From contig NMRA01000106.1 of the NCBI GenBank assembly GCA_002633005.1, positions 38,940-102,939 of the forward strand: a stretch of 64,000 bases of DNA. Direction: 5' to 3'. This document shows positions 11,650-63,010 of the stretch, piece after piece; positions within the stretch are counted from its first letter, which is position 1, and each line of letters starts with the position of its first letter. This stretch comes from Phoronis australis (lineage: Eukaryota > Animalia > Phoronida). A program made the position numbers and the translations under genes. The notes beneath the pieces were generated by a model. The model did not search any database and was not told where the DNA came from. It was given only the letters and a program-made list of their open reading frames with translations.

Positions 11650-13325
11650 AGCACGGGTGAAACTGATGCAGCGTTTTTTAGTCGGTGAATACCGGCAAGG
11701 TAGAGTTCAGTGGCTGTCGCGGCTCAGAGAAATATCTAGCCAAAATCACGTGCCCTCTTTTAGATTACACGGCTATATATCGCGTAATCTCTCGTCTTGT
11801 TTTCTAAAAGATCTAGCATTACTGAAATCTACCCAAGTTTCAAAAGGAGTAGTTTCGGTCTACACGCTGTCGGTTTCGTGCAAGCCCGGCCGACTGAAAA
11901 CACCTTTCCTGACTTGCATTCTGTTGTTTTCCTTATATGTGGAAAGTCACATGACTTGACTAATTGATAAAGTTCTTAACTTTATCACTTTGAAAACGCT
12001 ATAGAGAGTATCGGCGCATGAAACACCGTTTGGTAATTATTTTGCTATTATTCTGTACATAATGAGTTATTCTCTAATACAAAGACAAGGGTAAATCTAT
12101 CACCTGCGAAATGCACGCAGTGATGACTCTCGTGTCAATTCCACATCATATCAACTAGGAAGATGTGAATGATTAGGGGACCAACATTACAAAAATCCCT
12201 CGTTTGGTTTCAAGTCCAGATTACAGCTGTTAATTTGAGGCTAATCTAGCTATTGGTCTAGTGTATTGTGAAGCTTTCCTGTGCTATTTTGTTCGGCAGG
12301 TCAAGGTTCAGATAGTTACTAAAACAAACCAGAAGACCGACACCCACGCATCTCTTTTGGTTATTTTTATCCTCATTTCTTCGGGCAAAATGATCCAAAC
12401 TTGAATTTTTGGAGGAATTCAACTTCAGACAAGCAGCTCCAAAAGTCCCAGTTTCGGTCCACAAGCCAGTGTTTTATTGCTGGGACTAGCCATAACTGTA
12501 CCAGTACTATTGGCGGCAATTCCTTTAGTCCACGCAGTAGGACCTTCGATCAGATTCTCTGATGAACATCCTTCTTGACGCCAGTGGGAATTGTCATCTG
12601 ACATACTAAAATGGGCCTTTGTCATTTGTGGGGACGGGCCCAGCAAGCTCGTTACCCATTACATTTTATTGAGCCATACTAGATCGGATCCGTTGATTCT
12701 CCATAGGTATTTGTCTAGAGTGGACATGCATTAGGGGAGCCTCGAGGGCTCGAACGAAGTGGGCAAAAGGTCCTCCTCAAAGAAACAAAAACTACAAAAA
12801 AGTAGATAACGAGACAAAATTAAAAGTCCATAAAAAAGGCAGGAGCTACCACTAATTCGGCGCAAATCTAAGTGAAAGGTCCGCATTTCAAAAATTCGAG
12901 CCCCCCATTTTTAGGCTGGGTGCTCGCATGCATTTTCGCAAGGCCCTAGCATTATTAGGCTTAGACAACGTACGTGGGCCTATCTGCTATGATTTTTGTC
13001 TGCTCGCGAGAACGGAATCAACCCCAGGTGTCGCAATTTGTCATTCATCCGGGAATTTCTACTAGTGTTCCGCCATTTTAAGCGTTGTTGGTTGGCGTTC
13101 TTTTCTCCGTCTTTGTTTGAAGATCTGTCANGCATTATTAGGCTTAGACAACGTACGTGGGCCTATCTGCTATGATTTTTGTCTGCTCGCGAGAACGGAA
13201 TCAACCCCAGGTGTCGCAATTTGTCATTCATCCGGGCATTTCTACTAGTGTTCCGCCATTTTAAGCGTTGTTGGTTGGCGTTCTTTTCTCCGTCTTTGTT
13301 TGAAGATCTGTCATATCGAGTGAGA
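11650..13325. promoter_or_regulatory. divergent (head-to-head) promoter region of RNF32 and ZNF207
   Basis: CpG-enriched stretches. YY1-type CGCCATTTT about 70 bp upstream of the ZNF207 ATG, GCTCGCGAGA (TCTCGCGAGA-like) near 13184, and palindrome-like GTCACATGAC near 11946. Confidence 0.55.
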
Positions 13326-13375: not shown

Positions 13376-14158
13376 GAATGATGAAAATATTTTCAAGCAA
13401 ATTTTGCGTCGTGTCTCGTTAAATCTCTTCGTTCCGTCCACGACCAAGTCGGTAGTCGGTAGATAGACGCACAGGCGCTTGAGTTTATCTGTTACTCGAT
13501 CGCAAATGACGTCACTCACTACTAAGGAAACATAAAGGTTGGGCACTCAAAATCTGTTTGCTCAGAATTTTCTACTCAAATGAGCATGGAACTCCACGAA
13601 ACTAGCATCGAACAAACCTTTGAATACCTTCTTTCATTTGATCTCTTCAAATTGCCTTCGAGTAGGGCGGTCGAACCAAAATTTTTTTTTTCGTTTTGAA
13701 AAAATTCTTTACTATCATCGGGAAGATAATGCATCCTANTAGATTATAGACAACAGATTCGCAACTCCGCCATATCCTTACGTGCTGAGTTGAACTCTCC
13801 TGACCTATCTGCTGCAGTTTCCGGTCAGTGTATTTTGACGAGAAATACTTGCATCTACTTTACTGTCCAAAACAACGAAAAAGTATTAATTAATATTAAT
13901 TTTGGCATTGAAACGCTTTTCAAAGTCTTTCAATAGTAGAAGTTTTGGTATTATGAGTACTTTTGGTTATGCTACTGGTACTTAATTACAAAATTCAAAC
14001 TTCGGTGCCGACTGATTATGTCGTCTGCTTGCCCAATAGCAGCATAGTTATCGGACAGTTTTTGATTTATGGTTCACATAGGCCTACTGAGAAAACTACG
14101 AAAGCATGTTTATGAATCAACATTCTCAAGTGATCAGTTATTCTGGAAAGTGTTGAGT

Positions 14159-14174
14159 GGCCCTTAAAAGGGCC
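14159..14174 (-). terminator. histone-type 3' stem-loop (perfect)
   Basis: Minus strand ACCAAC-GGCCCT-TTTA-AGGGCC-ACTCA: 6-bp stem, 4-nt U-rich loop and A/C-rich flanks, as in replication-dependent histone mRNA ends. Confidence 0.8.
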
Positions 14175-14199
14175 GTTGGTTGTAGCTATAGCGTGAAAT

Positions 14200-14215
14200 G
14201 GTTTTTAAAAGAACC
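14200..14215 (-). terminator. second histone-type 3' stem-loop (one mismatch)
   Basis: Minus strand TTCAAC-GGTTCT-TTTA-AAAACC-ATTTC, one substitution away from GGTTCTTTTAAGAACC. Confidence 0.6.
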
Positions 14216-14225
14216 GTTGAATAAT

Positions 14226-14293
14226 TCAACATAAATCACACAGTATACCCTGCTCACTCAAGTACTGAAGGTCCTCTTCATTCAAGTTTTCAT
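14226..14293 (-). CDS. candidate terminal exon of an unknown non-histone gene
   Basis: Pyrimidine-rich tract CCATCTTCTCTGTTTTCATCCAATCTTCCCAG, then a phase-1 frame xENLNEEDLQYLSEQGILCDLC-TGA. The first stem-loop starts 10 nt after the stop. Confidence 0.45.
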
Positions 14294-14356
14294 CTGGGAA
14301 GATTGGATGAAAACAGAGAAGATGGCAATATCGATGACATTTGTATCACCTTATAT

Positions 14357-17300
14357 TAGGGCGGTCGAACCAAAATTTTTTTTTTCGTTTTGAAAAAATT
14401 CTCTACCATCATCGGGAAGATAATGCATCCTACTCAATAAAAATCGAAAAATTATCAAAATCGAGCCAAGCACTGCAAAGTTATTGCAATTTTTGTGGCG
14501 AAATTTGGGTCACCTTGTTTGGATCGGTTCGGCCATCTTGGACGACAGCGGAATAAGTTACAAGTTTAAAACTTAGTATAAATTATTTTCGCCGATAATT
14601 TACGGTAAAAATTAGGGAGACATATCTTTACTTACTATTCTGCGCGATTCACTAGTTTTCACTAAATTTAAGCAACGCAGTTCTTACTTATTGAGTGATA
14701 AAAGTGCTGAGAATTCCCGTTGGACTTAGTCTCATTTCCGGCGGCACCGACAACATGGCGACTTTTGCTGAACTGAAAGGCATGTTCAACCAGCTACTTT
14801 GTAATTTGTGAAGATTTAACGTTGATACATTTTGACAAACGCTGCTACAAAAAAGGAACTCTGATCAATTTTCATGTTTTTGTTCAAAAAATATTAGGAA
14901 TATTCTAATTATTTTTCCCATTCAGGTGATCTTACACTCGGCTAAAAAAGTTGAAATATTTTTGAAATGTTTTTTTTTTGTTTGACAGCCAACTGCTCTT
15001 CAAGGCTTGATTATGTACCACAAAATGATTCGTATTTCTCTGAATTTTGTGGCAAATTTGTGCTTTGAAGTTGTGTTTTGTAACTTGTTGCTTTCTTTCT
15101 TCAGGTTATCAACAGAAGGCAATAGTATTATATGAAGAATCTTAATAANATTCATATTTCTCTGAATTTTGTGGCAAATTTGTGCTTTGAAGTCGTGTTT
15201 TGTAACTTGTTACTTTCTTTCTTCAGGTTATCAACAGAAGGCAATAGTATTATATGAAGAATCTTAATAAAAGAAATAGGCTATGTTGGATTGTGAATCT
15301 TCAAGCCTCCAATCCTTGTAACTTGCAACTTCATATTATTTAAATCATGGTTGTGGAATTCTGGTGTAAGGAAATACTAGTCAGTCGCCATGGTAATAGT
15401 TATGTGCATGCAAATTAGTAGTCAAGAAAATTTTGTGCAGTTGGATACCATTTGTAATGCTTAATGATCTAAAGTACTGTGCATTCAAGGTTACTTATGG
15501 TAAAAGATTGAATCATTTTCGCTTACACATTATGGTAACTGTACTGAGATTATTTCAGTTTTGACTGATGTGGGGTAGATATAACCCTCAACTACCTTGA
15601 AAGTCTTTCACTCTAGAAAATTGAAAGGTCACTTCCTTCGTACTCACCGCTTAAATAAAAAATTATAACATTTTGTATTGGACTTATCATGCTCCTCATT
15701 TATTTTTCCAATCTTTTAGTTATCTCATAACTGAATCAGAAATAGTGAAATCAGTCCTCAGCTTGGCACAGCAATTCATTACAATGCGACTTCATTTTGG
15801 CAGTACAGGGGAAGATGTACCAGTGAAGAAGGCACCCCTTCAAGTGATCTGTACTGAAATAGAAAATCAATCAGTTGAAGGCACTGATACAAGCTTAAAN
15901 CTCTAGAAAATTGAAAGGTCACTTCCTTCGTACTCACCGCTTAAATAAAAAATGATAACATTTTGTATTGGACTTATCGTCTTTGAGCTATGTCAAGAAA
16001 TGGAATTGAAAGAACGTACGCCAGGGATTAATTATCATATGAAAAAAGCAAAATTTTGGAGGGTTGACCAATCTTGTCAAAACTGAGGGTTTTTTGTCTA
16101 GTATCTTTTCTTGCCAATGCCTTGGATGATCTGCTCAATGAAGATGAAAATAAATTTGTGTCATGTTTGGGAAGTTAATGATTATATCAGTGGCGTACAT
16201 GTACATACCTAACAGCTATAGACTGTTGCCACTGCATGGGTGGAACATAGAAAAAGTAGCCACAACAGAATTACATGTAATGTGACTGTTTTTGACTGAG
16301 ATAGAAATGAAGACCTCTTTTACATAAGATACGTTATCATCAAGGAAAATTTTTTCTCATCAATACAAAACATGCTCCTCATTTATTTTTCCAATCTTTT
16401 AGTTATCTCATAACTGAATCAGAAATAGTGAAATCAGTCCTCAGCTTGGCACAGCAATTCATTACAATGCGACTTCATTTTGGCAGTACAGGGGAAGATG
16501 TACCACTGAAGAAGGCACCCCTTCAAGTGATCTGTACTGAAATAGAAAATCAATCAGTTGAAGGCACTGATACAAGCTTAAAAATCATACAGTTAGTCAT
16601 TTAAAATACTCCAGTAACTTGTTAAAATTCATGAAAATTCACTTCCTTACTCTACTTGAAATGAAACTGGCTTTCACTGTGCAAAATGGCCCTAAAAATA
16701 GATATGATGTGATCCAAAGACACTGCATAATTTGTTTACTTGGCTGCCATGACAAATCACGTGGAAGTGGAAAAATCCACAGCTTTCATCAAACTTTGTA
16801 TCTTTTGCGCACTCAACTCTGGTTACATTTGTATTGCGATTGCTGCATTATTTAGAGGGGGTGGTGTACTCATAAAACCGGGCGAAAATTTTTCTTTTTT
16901 CTTGTCGTAGAAATATCCAATTAATTTTAAATTTTACAAAAAATAGGACTTCTAATAAAAATAAAAATTCTTCGTCAAGATTCCAAAAATTTGACCATAT
17001 TTTCGCACACAAATAACCTTCACACCCCTTCGTAAGGACTATCCTATGTGGGCAAACTCGGTCACTTGCCGGTATGCCGTCCATTTTGGGTGGTTGGTGA
17101 ATTTTGAGCTCAAGGTCGAAATTAAACGTCCCGTGGAGTATGAAAATGCAGATGAAGTCCATGAAAAGATTTGGAGATAGTATACTGAGTGTTTCTGGAC
17201 CTGTTAATGTGAGTTTTGTTTGATAGGTTAAATTTTCACGCGCGTTAAAAATTTTTAAACGTTGATGTTCAGCACGGCAAAATCACCGACACGCGGAAGT

Positions 17301-19789: not shown

Positions 19790-20045
19790 GAATGATAAAT
19801 ATTGTCCTTTATTGAACCAAGCCTTCATCGTAACGTCTCCTGTGACTGGAGTCGAAACACGAGTCCTCAAAGTGGGCAGAACACAGAGTGGCCCTGGACC
19901 GAATCGCTTGGTCCACGATGACGTCCCACACTCTCGTTCGGCGCCCGAAGCGATGCCACTTCTGTGCAACTTTCATGTCCTTCGGAACACCGAGACGTTC
20001 TCCGCCTGGCTGCTGTTGCAGCAGCCTCCGGAAACACACCTTTTG
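19790..20045 (-). pseudogene. frameshifted THAP domain (transposase N-terminus)
   Basis: RCVSGGCCNSSQAENVSVF / frameshift / PKDMKVAQKWHRFGRRTR...TLCSAHFEDSCFD, then *RTIF. Shows the THAP C2CH, P, W and LCSxHF signature. Confidence 0.85.
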
Positions 20046-20836
20046 GTCCCTCTACGAACCTTCTCGACGCTAAATGTACTTTGCTTTCTCTTCACTCTAT
20101 ACACTTTGTCTCTGATCCGAACAGTATGGCAAACGACTTGGGTTTAACTCATGACGTTGTAGATAATTATTATTTTTTCAATTTTTGCGTGTTTCTTTAT
20201 GAGCTGTGCACTAAAGGCACTGAAATCAAGTAAGATATAATAATAAAAATTTATTTTGAGGTACTAGAGTCATGTTGTGTACACTTTAAAACAAATGAAA
20301 AAAAGAAACGGTGACACACTTTTAGTTCATTTAGGTAACTTCATTGTGGAAAAAGATTTATAACCGATTTATGTGATCGTCCTTTTTAAGACGACTTGGG
20401 GGTCTATATTGCACCCTCTCTCGGTGAAAACGAGGCAACGCTATAAAAACGAGACAGTGCCGAATATTGAATGCATTACAGCGCAACGAAAAATTGGTGT
20501 CATTTAGTTCTCAGATTATGCTTCAAGTATATTTAGGGTCCGTCCCATAATTAGGTACACTATGTGTACTTCAAAATACATGGAGAAAATCGTAGTGATA
20601 ACTAACGAAAGTAGCATGTACATTCTTAAACTGCATCTTTTTCTTTTCTTCATAGTTGATAAAAATCTTTGAATATGGCCTATTCTCGATGAGATTGCCT
20701 TCCGATTTATAACACATCAGTACAAAGTGCCATTTTGCAGAGGCACCCAGTTGCACAGCTTCACAAAATGGCCATTATTGGAGTGTTTTATTTGTGTGTT
20801 TTATTTGTTTATGTCAAACAGTCTTTGTGATGATAA

Positions 20837-59558: not shown

Positions 59559-62500
59559 TGTGGACATCGTTTTATGATCAAAGAAAAGACTGACTGTTAC
59601 CATCCGTGTGCGAAATGGGCACGTGCACGGGGAAAACCTTTTTAGACAAAAGACGGTCGAATTGTAAGTGGCGGACCAAGACATAGCTCAACAGTCAGAA
59701 AACGCGAGGAAACGTCTAAAAGTAAAACCACTGTGTTACGAGAACTTGCGAACTTTTAAATTGTAATTTTAAAAAACTCAACGTGGATATCGTCCTGTGA
59801 TCGAGACTGACTGCTGCCTTCAGTGTGCGAAATGGGCACGTGCACGGGGGAGGACCTTTAGACAGAAGATGGTCTAATTGTAAGTGGCAGATCTACAGCC
59901 AGAAAACGCGTTGTAACGTTTAAAAAGTAAAACCATGCCACTGTGTTACGAGAATTTGCGCACCGTCGAATTGTAAGTTTTAAAAATCTCAATGTGGACA
60001 TCATCCTCTGATCAAGAGACTGACTGTACCTTCCGTGTGCGAAATGGGCACGTGCACGGGGGTACCATTTTAGACAAAGGGCGGTCTAATTGTAAGTGGC
60101 AAATCAAGACATCACTCTACAGTGAATTGTAATTTTTAGAAATCTCAATGTGGACACCGTCTTATGATCAAGCGACTGACTGTACCTTCCCTGTGCGAAA
60201 TGGGCACGTGCACGGGGTTACCCTTTTAGACAGAAGACGGTCCAATCGTATGTGGCGGATCAAGGCATCATTCTACAGTCAATTGTAACTTATAGAAATC
60301 TCAATGTGGACACCGTCTTATGATCAAGAGACTGACTGTACCTTCCGTGTGCGAAATGGGCACGTGCACGGGGTACCCTTTTAGACAGAAGACCGTCCAA
60401 TCGTATGTGGCGGATCAAGGCATCATTCTACAGTCAATTGTAACTTATAGAAATCTCAATGTGGACACCGTCTTATGATCAAGAGACTGACTGTACCTTC
60501 CGTGTGCGAAATGGGCACGTGCACGGGGTACCCTTTTAGACAGAAGACCGTCCAATCGTATGTGGCGGATCAAGGCATCATTCTACAGTCAATTGTAACT
60601 TATAGAAATCTCAATGTGGACACCGTCTTATGATCAAGAGACTGACTGTACCTTCCGTGTGCGAAATGGGCACGTGCACGGGGTATCCTTTTAGACAGAA
60701 GGCAGTCTAATTGTAAGTGGCGGATCAAGAAATCACTCTACAGTCAAATATAACTTTTAGAAATCTCTAAGTGGACATTGTATTATGATCAAGAGACTGA
60801 CTGTACCTTCCGTGTGCGAAATGGGCTCGTGCACGGGGGTACCCATTTAGACAGAGGACGGTCTAATTGTAAGTGGCGGATCATGACATCACTCTACACT
60901 CAATTGTAAATTTTAGAAATCTCAATGTGGACAACGTCTTATGATCAAGAGACTGACTGTACCTTCCGTGTTCGAAATGGGCACGTGCACGGGTGTACCA
61001 TATTAGGCAGAAGACGTTCTAATTGTAAGGGGTGGATCAAAACATCAGTCTACATTCAATTGTCACTTTTAGAGATCTCAATGTGGGCATCGTCTTATGA
61101 TAAAGACACTGACTGTTAGCTTCCGTGTGCGAAATGGGCACGTGCACGAGGGTACCGTTTTAGACAGAAGACAGTCTAATTGTAAGTGACGCATCAAGAC
61201 ATCACTCTACAGTCAATTATAACTTTTAGAAATCTCAATGTGGACACCGTCTTATGATCAAGAGACTGACTGTACCTTCCGTGTGCGAAATGGGCACGTG
61301 CACGGGGTATTCTTTCAGACAAGAGACAGTCTAATTGTAAGTGGCGGATCAAGACATCACTCTACAGTCAATTGTAACTTTTAGAAATCTCAATGTGGAC
61401 ATTGTCTTATGGTCAAGTGACTGACTCTACCTTCCGTGTGCGAAATGGGCACGTGCACGGGGGTACCCTTTTAGACAGAAGATGGTCTAATTGTAAGTGG
61501 CGGATCAAGACATCACTCTACAGTCAATTTTAACTTTTAGAAATCTCAATGTGGACATCGTCTTATGATCAAGAGACTGGCTGTTACTTTCCGTGTACGA
61601 AATGGGCATGTGCACGGGGGTACCGTTTTAGACAGAAGACGGTCTAAATGTAAATGGCGGATCAAGACATCACTCTACGGTCAAATGTAACTTTTAGAAA
61701 TCTTAATGTGGAAACCGTCTTATGCTCAAGAGACTGACTGTACCTTCTGTGCGAAATGGGCACGTGCACGGGGGTATTTTAGACAAAAGACGGTCTAATT
61801 GTAAGTGGCGGATCAAGACATCACTCTACAGTCAACTGTAACTTTTAGAAATCTCAATGTGGACATCGTCTCATGGTCAAGTGACTGACTGTACCTTCCG
61901 TGTGCGAAATGGGCACGTGCACGGGGGTACCATTTTAGACAGAGGGCGGTCTAATTGTAAGTGGCAAATCAAGACATCACTCTACAGTCAATTATAACTT
62001 TTAGAAATCTCAATGTGGACACCGTCTTATGATCAAGAGACTGACTGTACCTTCCGTGTGCGAAATGGGCACGTGCACGGGGTATCCTTTTAGAAAGAAG
62101 GCAGTCTAATTGTAAGTGGCGGATCAAGGCATCACTCTACACAAAATTGTAATTTTTAGAAATCTCAATGTGGACATCGTCTTGTGATCAAGAGACTGAC
62201 TGTACATTCCGTGTTCGAAATGGGCACGTGCACGAGTGTACCATGTTAGGCAGAAGACGTTGTAATTGTAAGGGGTGGATTAAAACATCACTCTACATTT
62301 AATTGTGACTTTTAGAAATCCCAATGTGGACATCGTCTTATGATCCAGAGACTGACTGTTAGCTTCCGTGTGCGAAATGGGCACGTGCACGGGGGTACCG
62401 TTTTAGACAGAAGATAGTCTAATTGTAAGTGGCGCATCAAGACATCACTCTACAGTCAATTGTAACTTTTAGAAATCTCAATGTGGACACCGTCTTATGA

Positions 62501-63010
62501 TCAAGAGACTGACTCTACCTTCCGTGTGCGAAATGGGCACGTGCACGGGGGTACCGTTTTAGACAGAAGACGGTCTAATTGTAAGTGGCGGATCAAGACA
62601 TCACTCTACAGTCAATTGTAACTTTTAGGAATCTCAATGTGGACATCATCTGGTAATCAAGAGACTGACTGCTACCTTCCGTGTGCGAAATGGGCACGTG
62701 CACGGGGGTAACCTTTTAGACAGAAGACAGTCTAAGTGGCGGATCAAGACATCACTCTACAGTCAATTGTAACTTTTAGAAATCTCATTGTAGACATCGT
62801 CTAATGATCAAGAGACTGACTGCTACCTTCCGTGTGCGAAATGGTCACGTGCACGGGGGAGGACCCTTTTAGACAGAGGACGGTCTAAATGTAAGTGGCG
62901 TATCAAGACATCACTCTACAATCAGAACACGCGTGGTAACTTCTATAAAGGAAAACCGCTGTGTTACGAGAATTTGTGCACTTTTAAATTGTAACTTTTA
63001 AAAATCTCAG
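59559..63010 (+). repeat. tandem satellite, ~155-bp unit, about 21 units (terminal units ~210-220 bp)
   Basis: AATGTGGA recurs at 60303, 60458 and 60613 (period 155); core GTGTGCGAAATGGGCACGTGCACGGGG. Confidence 0.95.

Follow-up and report, generated by a model that had tools for sequence, protein, structure and literature searches.

The question raised by this locus is whether a gene that does not encode a histone can end in the 3' signal of histone mRNAs. To our knowledge, descriptions of the stem-loop 3' end assign it to replication-dependent histone mRNAs alone. The window, a 64,000-nucleotide (64 kb) stretch of Phoronis australis DNA, had been read from its letters alone. That sequence-only reading placed a short spliced terminal exon of a non-histone gene on the minus strand, entered through a pyrimidine tract and a CAG acceptor at 14293/14294 and followed by two tandem histone-type hairpins. 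All positions below refer to the window.

RNA data comprised one contig set (X1) of small share and three paired raw runs (X2-X4) chosen by species label. About 18-19% of each raw run was sampled and mapped onto 13760-14356 and 14105-14356. An origin of X2-X4 in a close relative would leave the frame and hairpin results unchanged.

The reading frame and its PHD finger

The frame, its stop codon and the sequences that border the gene are as follows.

14229..14354, minus strand: final 42 codons of a PHD-finger frame (C-x4-H-x2-C ... C-x2-C), recognized by homology to P0001, with a premature stop at 14346-14348 in the window copy
14226..14228, minus strand: natural stop codon, at the same end residue as in P0001
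14294..14296, minus strand: CAG read earlier as a splice acceptor, actually pieces of Pro and Asp codons
14359..17888, no strand assigned: distinct element of ~3.5 kb, bounded by short inverted ends with a TA just beyond each, and lacking a long frame
13739, no strand assigned: single N at a contig join, adjoining a third copy of the end of the ~3.5 kb element (13665)

Homologues were sought with the 39 residues below the premature stop, which generated 2 matches among 1.84 billion representative proteins. P0001 (61%, E 4.8e-10) has the same Cys as its last residue, and the second match is P0002 (54%, E 1.2e-04); the relatives align through the CAG without a break. Using tblastn, residues 52-93 of P0001 matched 14354-14229 as a single stretch across the CAG (57% identical, E 1.6e-14). 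A family profile search added P0007-P0009, and the protein searches together with the cluster of P0002 gave 9 relatives in total, a patchy spread. P0002 and P0007 exceed the Pfam cut-off for PF22908 (PHD_NSD). No Pfam family was matched by the window's own 39 residues, which are assigned to the PHD type through their homology to P0001 and P0002.

The relatives resemble known PHD fingers (PF22908 PHD_NSD, PF00628) in the C4HC3 ligand pattern of P0002, P0007 and P0008 and in their fold. They differ in standing alone at ~110 residues and in a long helical insert of 33 residues after the first CxxC. Five of the eight zinc ligands lie in the window and a sixth is supplied by the reads. The structure model of P0002 had a pLDDT of 74, was built from 7 sequences, and was the one confident model of five. 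PHD fingers ranked at the top in Foldseek (E 0.2, not significant) and in VIA-align (Z 4.3, a low value), where nearly all of the best 50 rows were PHD-type. In the ESM Atlas the best score for P0002 was 0.88 and PHD clusters held ranks 2-5, which we treat as a lead. Searches with the 42-residue piece and the family profile found no longer or fused proteins, which is weak evidence on this point. Judged by homology, then, what the window carries is half of a small PHD protein that stands alone, namely its C-terminal part. The C-terminal peptide of the sequence-only reading is present, but it is half of a PHD finger and not the short acidic tail of a spliced exon. By analogy with its relatives, the protein may bind histone tails.

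The window copy is dead, because it has a premature stop and its 5' part has been replaced by the ~3.5 kb element. In 86/96 reads the premature stop at 14346-14348 is a Cys codon. Beyond 14353 the reads continue with 30 loose letters (38, 16 and 4 reads plus one contig); translated by hand in frame, these give nine stop-free codons, and 7/9 are identical to P0001 residues 43-51. The proposal that a transposon cuts the gene off upstream holds, with the end of the element at about 14357-14359, where it has displaced the gene's 5' portion. By tblastn no upstream PHD half turned up in the window, the far side of the element included, so this was no clean insertion. Linkage of the hairpins to sequence below the contig join at 13739 is uncertain.

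Several other features of the window were recorded. The two ends of the ~3.5 kb element and the third end at 13665 share a CCT lying 5-6 nt beyond the TA, which may reflect a target preference. A gene of several exons at about 11150-7350, minus strand, encodes two RING fingers, whose Pfam matches fall below cut-off, and we take it to resemble RNF32; the contig join separates it from the hairpins. A THAP domain fragment (PF05485) at 19809-20048, minus strand, is probably a P-type transposon relic. Single Ns at 13131, 15149, 15900, 23638 and 26599 stand between near-identical duplicated stretches, which are probably unmerged contig overlaps and hence assembly artefacts. The stretch 59969-62924 is a satellite whose 156-nt unit occurs 19 times.

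RNA reads and the supposed splice acceptor

The reads fall on one shared block.

13763..14353, no strand assigned: block in common with a multi-copy transcribed repeat, with loose read ends at 13763 and 14353

At both ends of the block the reads leave the window sequence and continue into other sequence, with several forms of loose end. Among raw reads on 13760-14356, 5/876 were at least 99% alike to the window; most were 85-95% alike, and both strands were covered. Position 14250 carries three letters, whose shares are unlike in sense and antisense reads. The scarcity of reads at least 99% alike, the three letters at 14250 and the loose ends argue that the reads come from several other copies of the repeat and not from the window copy. 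Many of them may be repeat copies within other transcripts.

Strand was assigned from the reads themselves. At 14 A-to-G sites in X3, 116/303 observations in first-mate-minus reads showed the change versus 9/480 in first-mate-plus reads, and two of the loose ends reproduce the window apart from a G in place of almost every A. These clusters have the pattern of A-to-I (ADAR) hyper-editing of plus-strand (antisense) RNA in long double-stranded form. Given the A-to-G excess in first-mate-minus reads, first-mate-plus reads were taken as sense to the gene. By this internal evidence the libraries appear to be stranded.

The supposed acceptor was then compared with these reads. Sense depth before and after it was flat (51.2 to 50.2 in X2, 36.0 to 35.9 in X3). 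None of the strongest 15 of 26 loose ends lies at 14293/14294, and one X1 contig spans 14117-14353 gap-free. No splice was seen across 14229-14353 and 30 nt beyond. The A of the CAG (14295) differs in 31/145 reads, a synonymous change in a Pro codon.

The differences between reads and window also follow the frame. There are 21 differing sites in 14229-14354. Ten of them occur among the sense reads of X2 as well as X3 and were kept; set aside were 6 A-to-G sites nearly confined to antisense reads and 5 that were mainly antisense or seen in one contig. 9/10 sites fell at third codon positions (P 3.6e-4), while in the other two frames the same sites gave 0/10 and 1/10. Upstream of the CAG the figure was 6/7 (P 0.007). 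Adding the 5 non-A-to-G sites gave 10/15 (P about 0.009, by hand). Of the changes in the 14229-14354 frame, 5/11 are synonymous.

With flat depth, a silent change of the acceptor A, a third-position bias and homology straight through, the CAG at 14294-14296 is no acceptor, and the frame is unspliced across it in the sampled copies. A terminal exon starting at 14293 had been suggested by the pyrimidine-rich run and CAG ahead of that position, and the frame is indeed closed upstream in the window copy. For the sampled copies this reading is refuted, and we regard it as very improbable overall.

Two histone-type stem-loops behind the stop codon

The 3' features lie below the natural stop.

14200..14215, minus strand: stem-loop 1, histone-type, starting 10 nt past the stop, with one stem mismatch in the window copy
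14154..14179, minus strand: stem-loop 2, histone-type, a 26-nt element including A/C-rich flanks (stem plus loop 14174-14159)
14137..14146, minus strand: candidate histone downstream element, 13-22 nt beyond stem 2

The placement of the two hairpins by the sequence-only reading was confirmed: they start 10 and 51 nt past the stop, with a period of 41 nt. Hairpin 2 with its flanks matched Rfam RF00032 (Histone3) at 14179-14133, minus strand, with 36.4 bits against a gathering threshold of 34 (E 6.3e-07), and was the sole gathering-level Rfam match across the 64 kb window. Its 6-bp stem has G-C at pair 2, and the third position of its 4-nt loop is U. The claim of two tandem hairpins needs one amendment, as hairpin 1 is mismatched here and went unreported in the Rfam search of the window, even at E 5. 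The mismatch is a single C-A pair, and folding of this copy is weak (-2.6 kcal/mol, z -2.1). In 100/102 reads position 14204 differs, and the change makes hairpin 1 fully paired; the hairpin of these other copies is then a 6-4-6 structure with G-C at pair 2 and the loop U. In sense reads hairpin 2 showed just a rare change at 14174 (3/60). Because the copies differ by merely about 5-15%, conservation of the 32 hairpin bases has little power.

A motif of 16 nt is short, and prokaryote contigs carry comparable palindromes in tandem arrays; both points would favour chance as a source. In 300 dinucleotide shuffles of the window there was a mean of 0.047 such hairpins (up to one stem mismatch), and 0/300 shuffled windows held a tandem pair <100 nt apart. 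Together with the Rfam E of 6.3e-07 and the position right behind a real stop, these counts leave chance with next to no probability as an explanation. As a separate observation, a scan of prokaryote genomes for the hairpin gave 5 loci, all of them tandem palindromic repeats unrelated to the PHD-gene hairpins. Three (L004, L006 and L007, from a Methanosarcinales genome) are tandem repeats of 48-49 nt whose palindrome agrees at every position with the consensus of the histone stem-loop.

No histone coding sequence was evident, in agreement with the sequence-only reading: 11 short histone motifs were absent from the six frames of the window, a coarse test. The 41-nt units of the two hairpins are identical at 24/41 positions. 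Between stems 1 and 2 there are two compensated pair differences, U-A versus C-G at positions 3 and 4. These are suggestive of an ancient tandem duplication whose structure was under selection, although the flanks are also constrained by the consensus.

The accessible part of a recent preprint (10.64898/2026.10.14.759114) describes the histone 3' end by G-C at pair 2, the loop U, a distance of 25-60 nt from the stop and a purine-rich downstream element. Measured to the 26-nt element, the distance from the stop is 5 nt for hairpin 1, outside this range, and 46 nt for hairpin 2, inside it. The geometry in the accessible part of that preprint predicts a cut after 14154. A purine-rich stretch, 15-21 nt past stem 2, lies behind the predicted cut at hairpin 2, and its pairing with U7 is a candidate interaction; no such element lies behind hairpin 1. 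In the window the downstream element is weak, as had been noted, but in other copies it is richer in purines, since 14140 differs in 133/140 reads. Neither AATAAA nor ATTAAA was found in the 419 nt from hairpin 2 to the contig join.

The hairpins thus resemble the metazoan histone mRNA 3' end (RF00032; SLBP, U7 snRNP, CPSF73) in their 6-bp stem, 4-nt loop, G-C at pair 2 and loop U. The A/C-rich flanks, the 46 nt from the stop, the purine-rich element and a gene that is intron-free where seen are further likenesses. The differences are that the frame here is a PHD finger and no histone, that the hairpins are in tandem within a multi-copy repeat, and that processing here is predicted.

Sense RNA was followed across the hairpins, with library selection given as 'unspecified'. 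X3 depth went from 36 within the frame to 31 over hairpin 1, 40 over hairpin 2 and 38 behind the predicted cut, with 40-49 further downstream (13960-14139). In X2 it fell from 50 to 22 within the frame and from 27 to 17-19 behind the cut, and was ~40 further down. The sampled sense RNA therefore reads through both hairpins. The 3' ends expected near 14154 did not appear, as there was no pile-up there among the ends listed, at low depth and with selection 'unspecified'. The sole pile-up among the ends listed was 8 molecules at 14185 in X2. Since poly(A) selection would remove poly(A)-minus RNA, stem-loop ends could be hidden from libraries of that kind.

Probably mobile relatives and a predicted use of the histone 3' end pathway

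A metagenome scan gave 26 pattern matches, which reduced to three loci (L001, L002 and L003). L003, a weak match of 28 residues, was excluded. In L001 (1-2465) a long frame with DUF7869, broken once, begins 2 nt past the PHD stop. L002 (3070-4099) has the same order, a PHD frame then a DUF7869-type frame, in a decayed state, with an acceptor-like run immediately ahead of the PHD frame. In both loci the PHD and DUF7869 frames apparently form a two-gene message. Histone stem-loops are absent from L001 and L002, the two PHD loci with DNA, so the stem-loop signal is not family-wide. L001 has an AATAAA 152 nt beyond its last stop.

The DUF7869 frame of L001 carries motifs that we take to be Sola1-like, and we presume on this ground that it is a transposase. 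In the ESM Atlas it sits among unnamed eukaryotic DUF7869 clusters. It matched neither PDB sequences nor NCBIfam, and its single-sequence model had a pLDDT of 40, which made a fold search uninformative. The likeness of the window's family to Sola1 transposons lies in this frame behind a PHD relative, with its DUF7869 and Sola1-like motifs. The differences are that transposon ends and target duplications were not seen and that the window has hairpins where L001 begins its transposase. The accessible part of PMC3845634 describes Sola1-type DNA transposons with an AWWT target duplication. An accessory PHD gene in Sola1-type transposons was not found in the literature searched, subscription journals and Repbase being outside its scope.

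Five proteins that are 88-98% alike, encoded on five separate contigs of megabase scale, make up the cluster of P0002. No DDE transposase was found within the window, and no transposase or terminal repeat linkable to the window's PHD family was seen. By analogy with L001 and L002, the family is likely transposon-borne. The repeat family and the PHD frame bear out the suggestion of a non-histone, probably mobile gene that ends in histone-type stem-loops. Endogenous-virus origin had also been raised and is unsupported: neither the PHD family nor the L001 frame had a relative among viral contigs, where two stem-loop patterns also went unmatched.

A non-mobile host family of small PHD proteins might instead have adopted the histone 3' end pathway. 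The purifying-selection pattern in the frame fits such a family, as does the lack of a visible transposase or terminal repeat for the window's family. But the closest relatives with DNA context adjoin a transposase-like frame, mobile DNA typically shows what is seen here, with reads that are antisense and hyper-edited and a copy left as a fragment amid repeats, and the spread over 9 relatives in protein searches is patchy. We consider a host family unlikely.

Our best explanation, to which we give about an even chance, is that the window holds what is left, at the 3' end, of one dead copy of a multi-copy gene, that this gene codes for a small PHD finger standing alone, and that it is likely an accessory gene of a DNA transposon. 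In intact copies SLBP would bind hairpin 2, U7 would pair with the purine-rich element 13-22 nt past stem 2, and CPSF73 would cleave 5 nt beyond the stem, after 14154. The product would be a poly(A)-minus mRNA carrying two SLBP sites. Hairpin 1 would be an old tandem duplicate serving as an extra SLBP site, with no cleavage there, because it has no downstream element of its own and lies too near the stop. The outcome would be a chromatin-reading helper made in S phase or in oocytes. The SLBP/U7 reading is favoured by the Rfam pass, G-C at pair 2, the loop U, the 46 nt from the stop, the purine-rich element and the lack of a poly(A) hexamer; a function in 3' end processing is predicted from these sequence features.

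The same hairpins could also have been captured from the 3' end of a histone gene and be carried along passively behind a transposon's PHD gene, with transcripts that read through and are polyadenylated or lie within other RNAs. Sense reads that cross both hairpins with no drop are in keeping with this, and so are L001 and L002 without hairpins and the AATAAA of L001. Against capture stand the distance of 46 nt to the stop, the properly spaced purine-rich element and the lack of a poly(A) hexamer in 419 nt downstream, as well as the two compensated stem differences, which would require either selection or two separate captures. We hold capture to be the next most likely explanation, though well short of even odds.

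Two known systems bear on the SLBP/U7 reading. The accessible part of PMC9526256 describes a dual end of the H2AX type, with a stem-loop mRNA in S phase and polyadenylated read-through otherwise. With such an arrangement, a stem-loop could be intact and read-through RNA could still turn up in poly(A) libraries; the difference is that H2AX is a histone and that no poly(A) site was located in the PHD repeat. According to the accessible part of 10.1101/2023.08.25.554787, U7 snRNA represses HERV1/LTR12 elements through HDE-like motifs. This likewise ties U7 to mobile DNA through HDE-like motifs, but by transcriptional repression, with neither stem-loop nor cleavage.

Use of the histone stem-loop end by a non-histone gene or a transposon was not found in the literature searched, with preprint supplements, subscription journals and Repbase outside its scope, and the accessible text of 10.64898/2026.10.14.759114 has no mention of 'non-histone', 'transpos' or 'tandem'. 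What the locus presents is a 3' end of familiar type behind a client gene of a new kind; the hairpins are real, and the anatomy first proposed for the gene was wrong.

A bolder version of the SLBP/U7 reading, which we rate as rather unlikely, is that the transposon makes its own histone-tail reader through this pathway, timed with new histones in S phase or in eggs. The double stem-loop, standing where relatives begin the transposase, would then act as a switch that decides whether the message is a short PHD one or reads through.

Should many copies of a selected non-histone frame prove to carry the complete signal at their end, the pathway that forms histone 3' ends would have further clients. 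If so, mobile elements could time their expression to DNA replication or to the egg via SLBP and U7, and such elements would escape notice in poly(A) RNA-seq. The PHD repeat family offers a simple test, as it has a single predicted cut site, after 14154.
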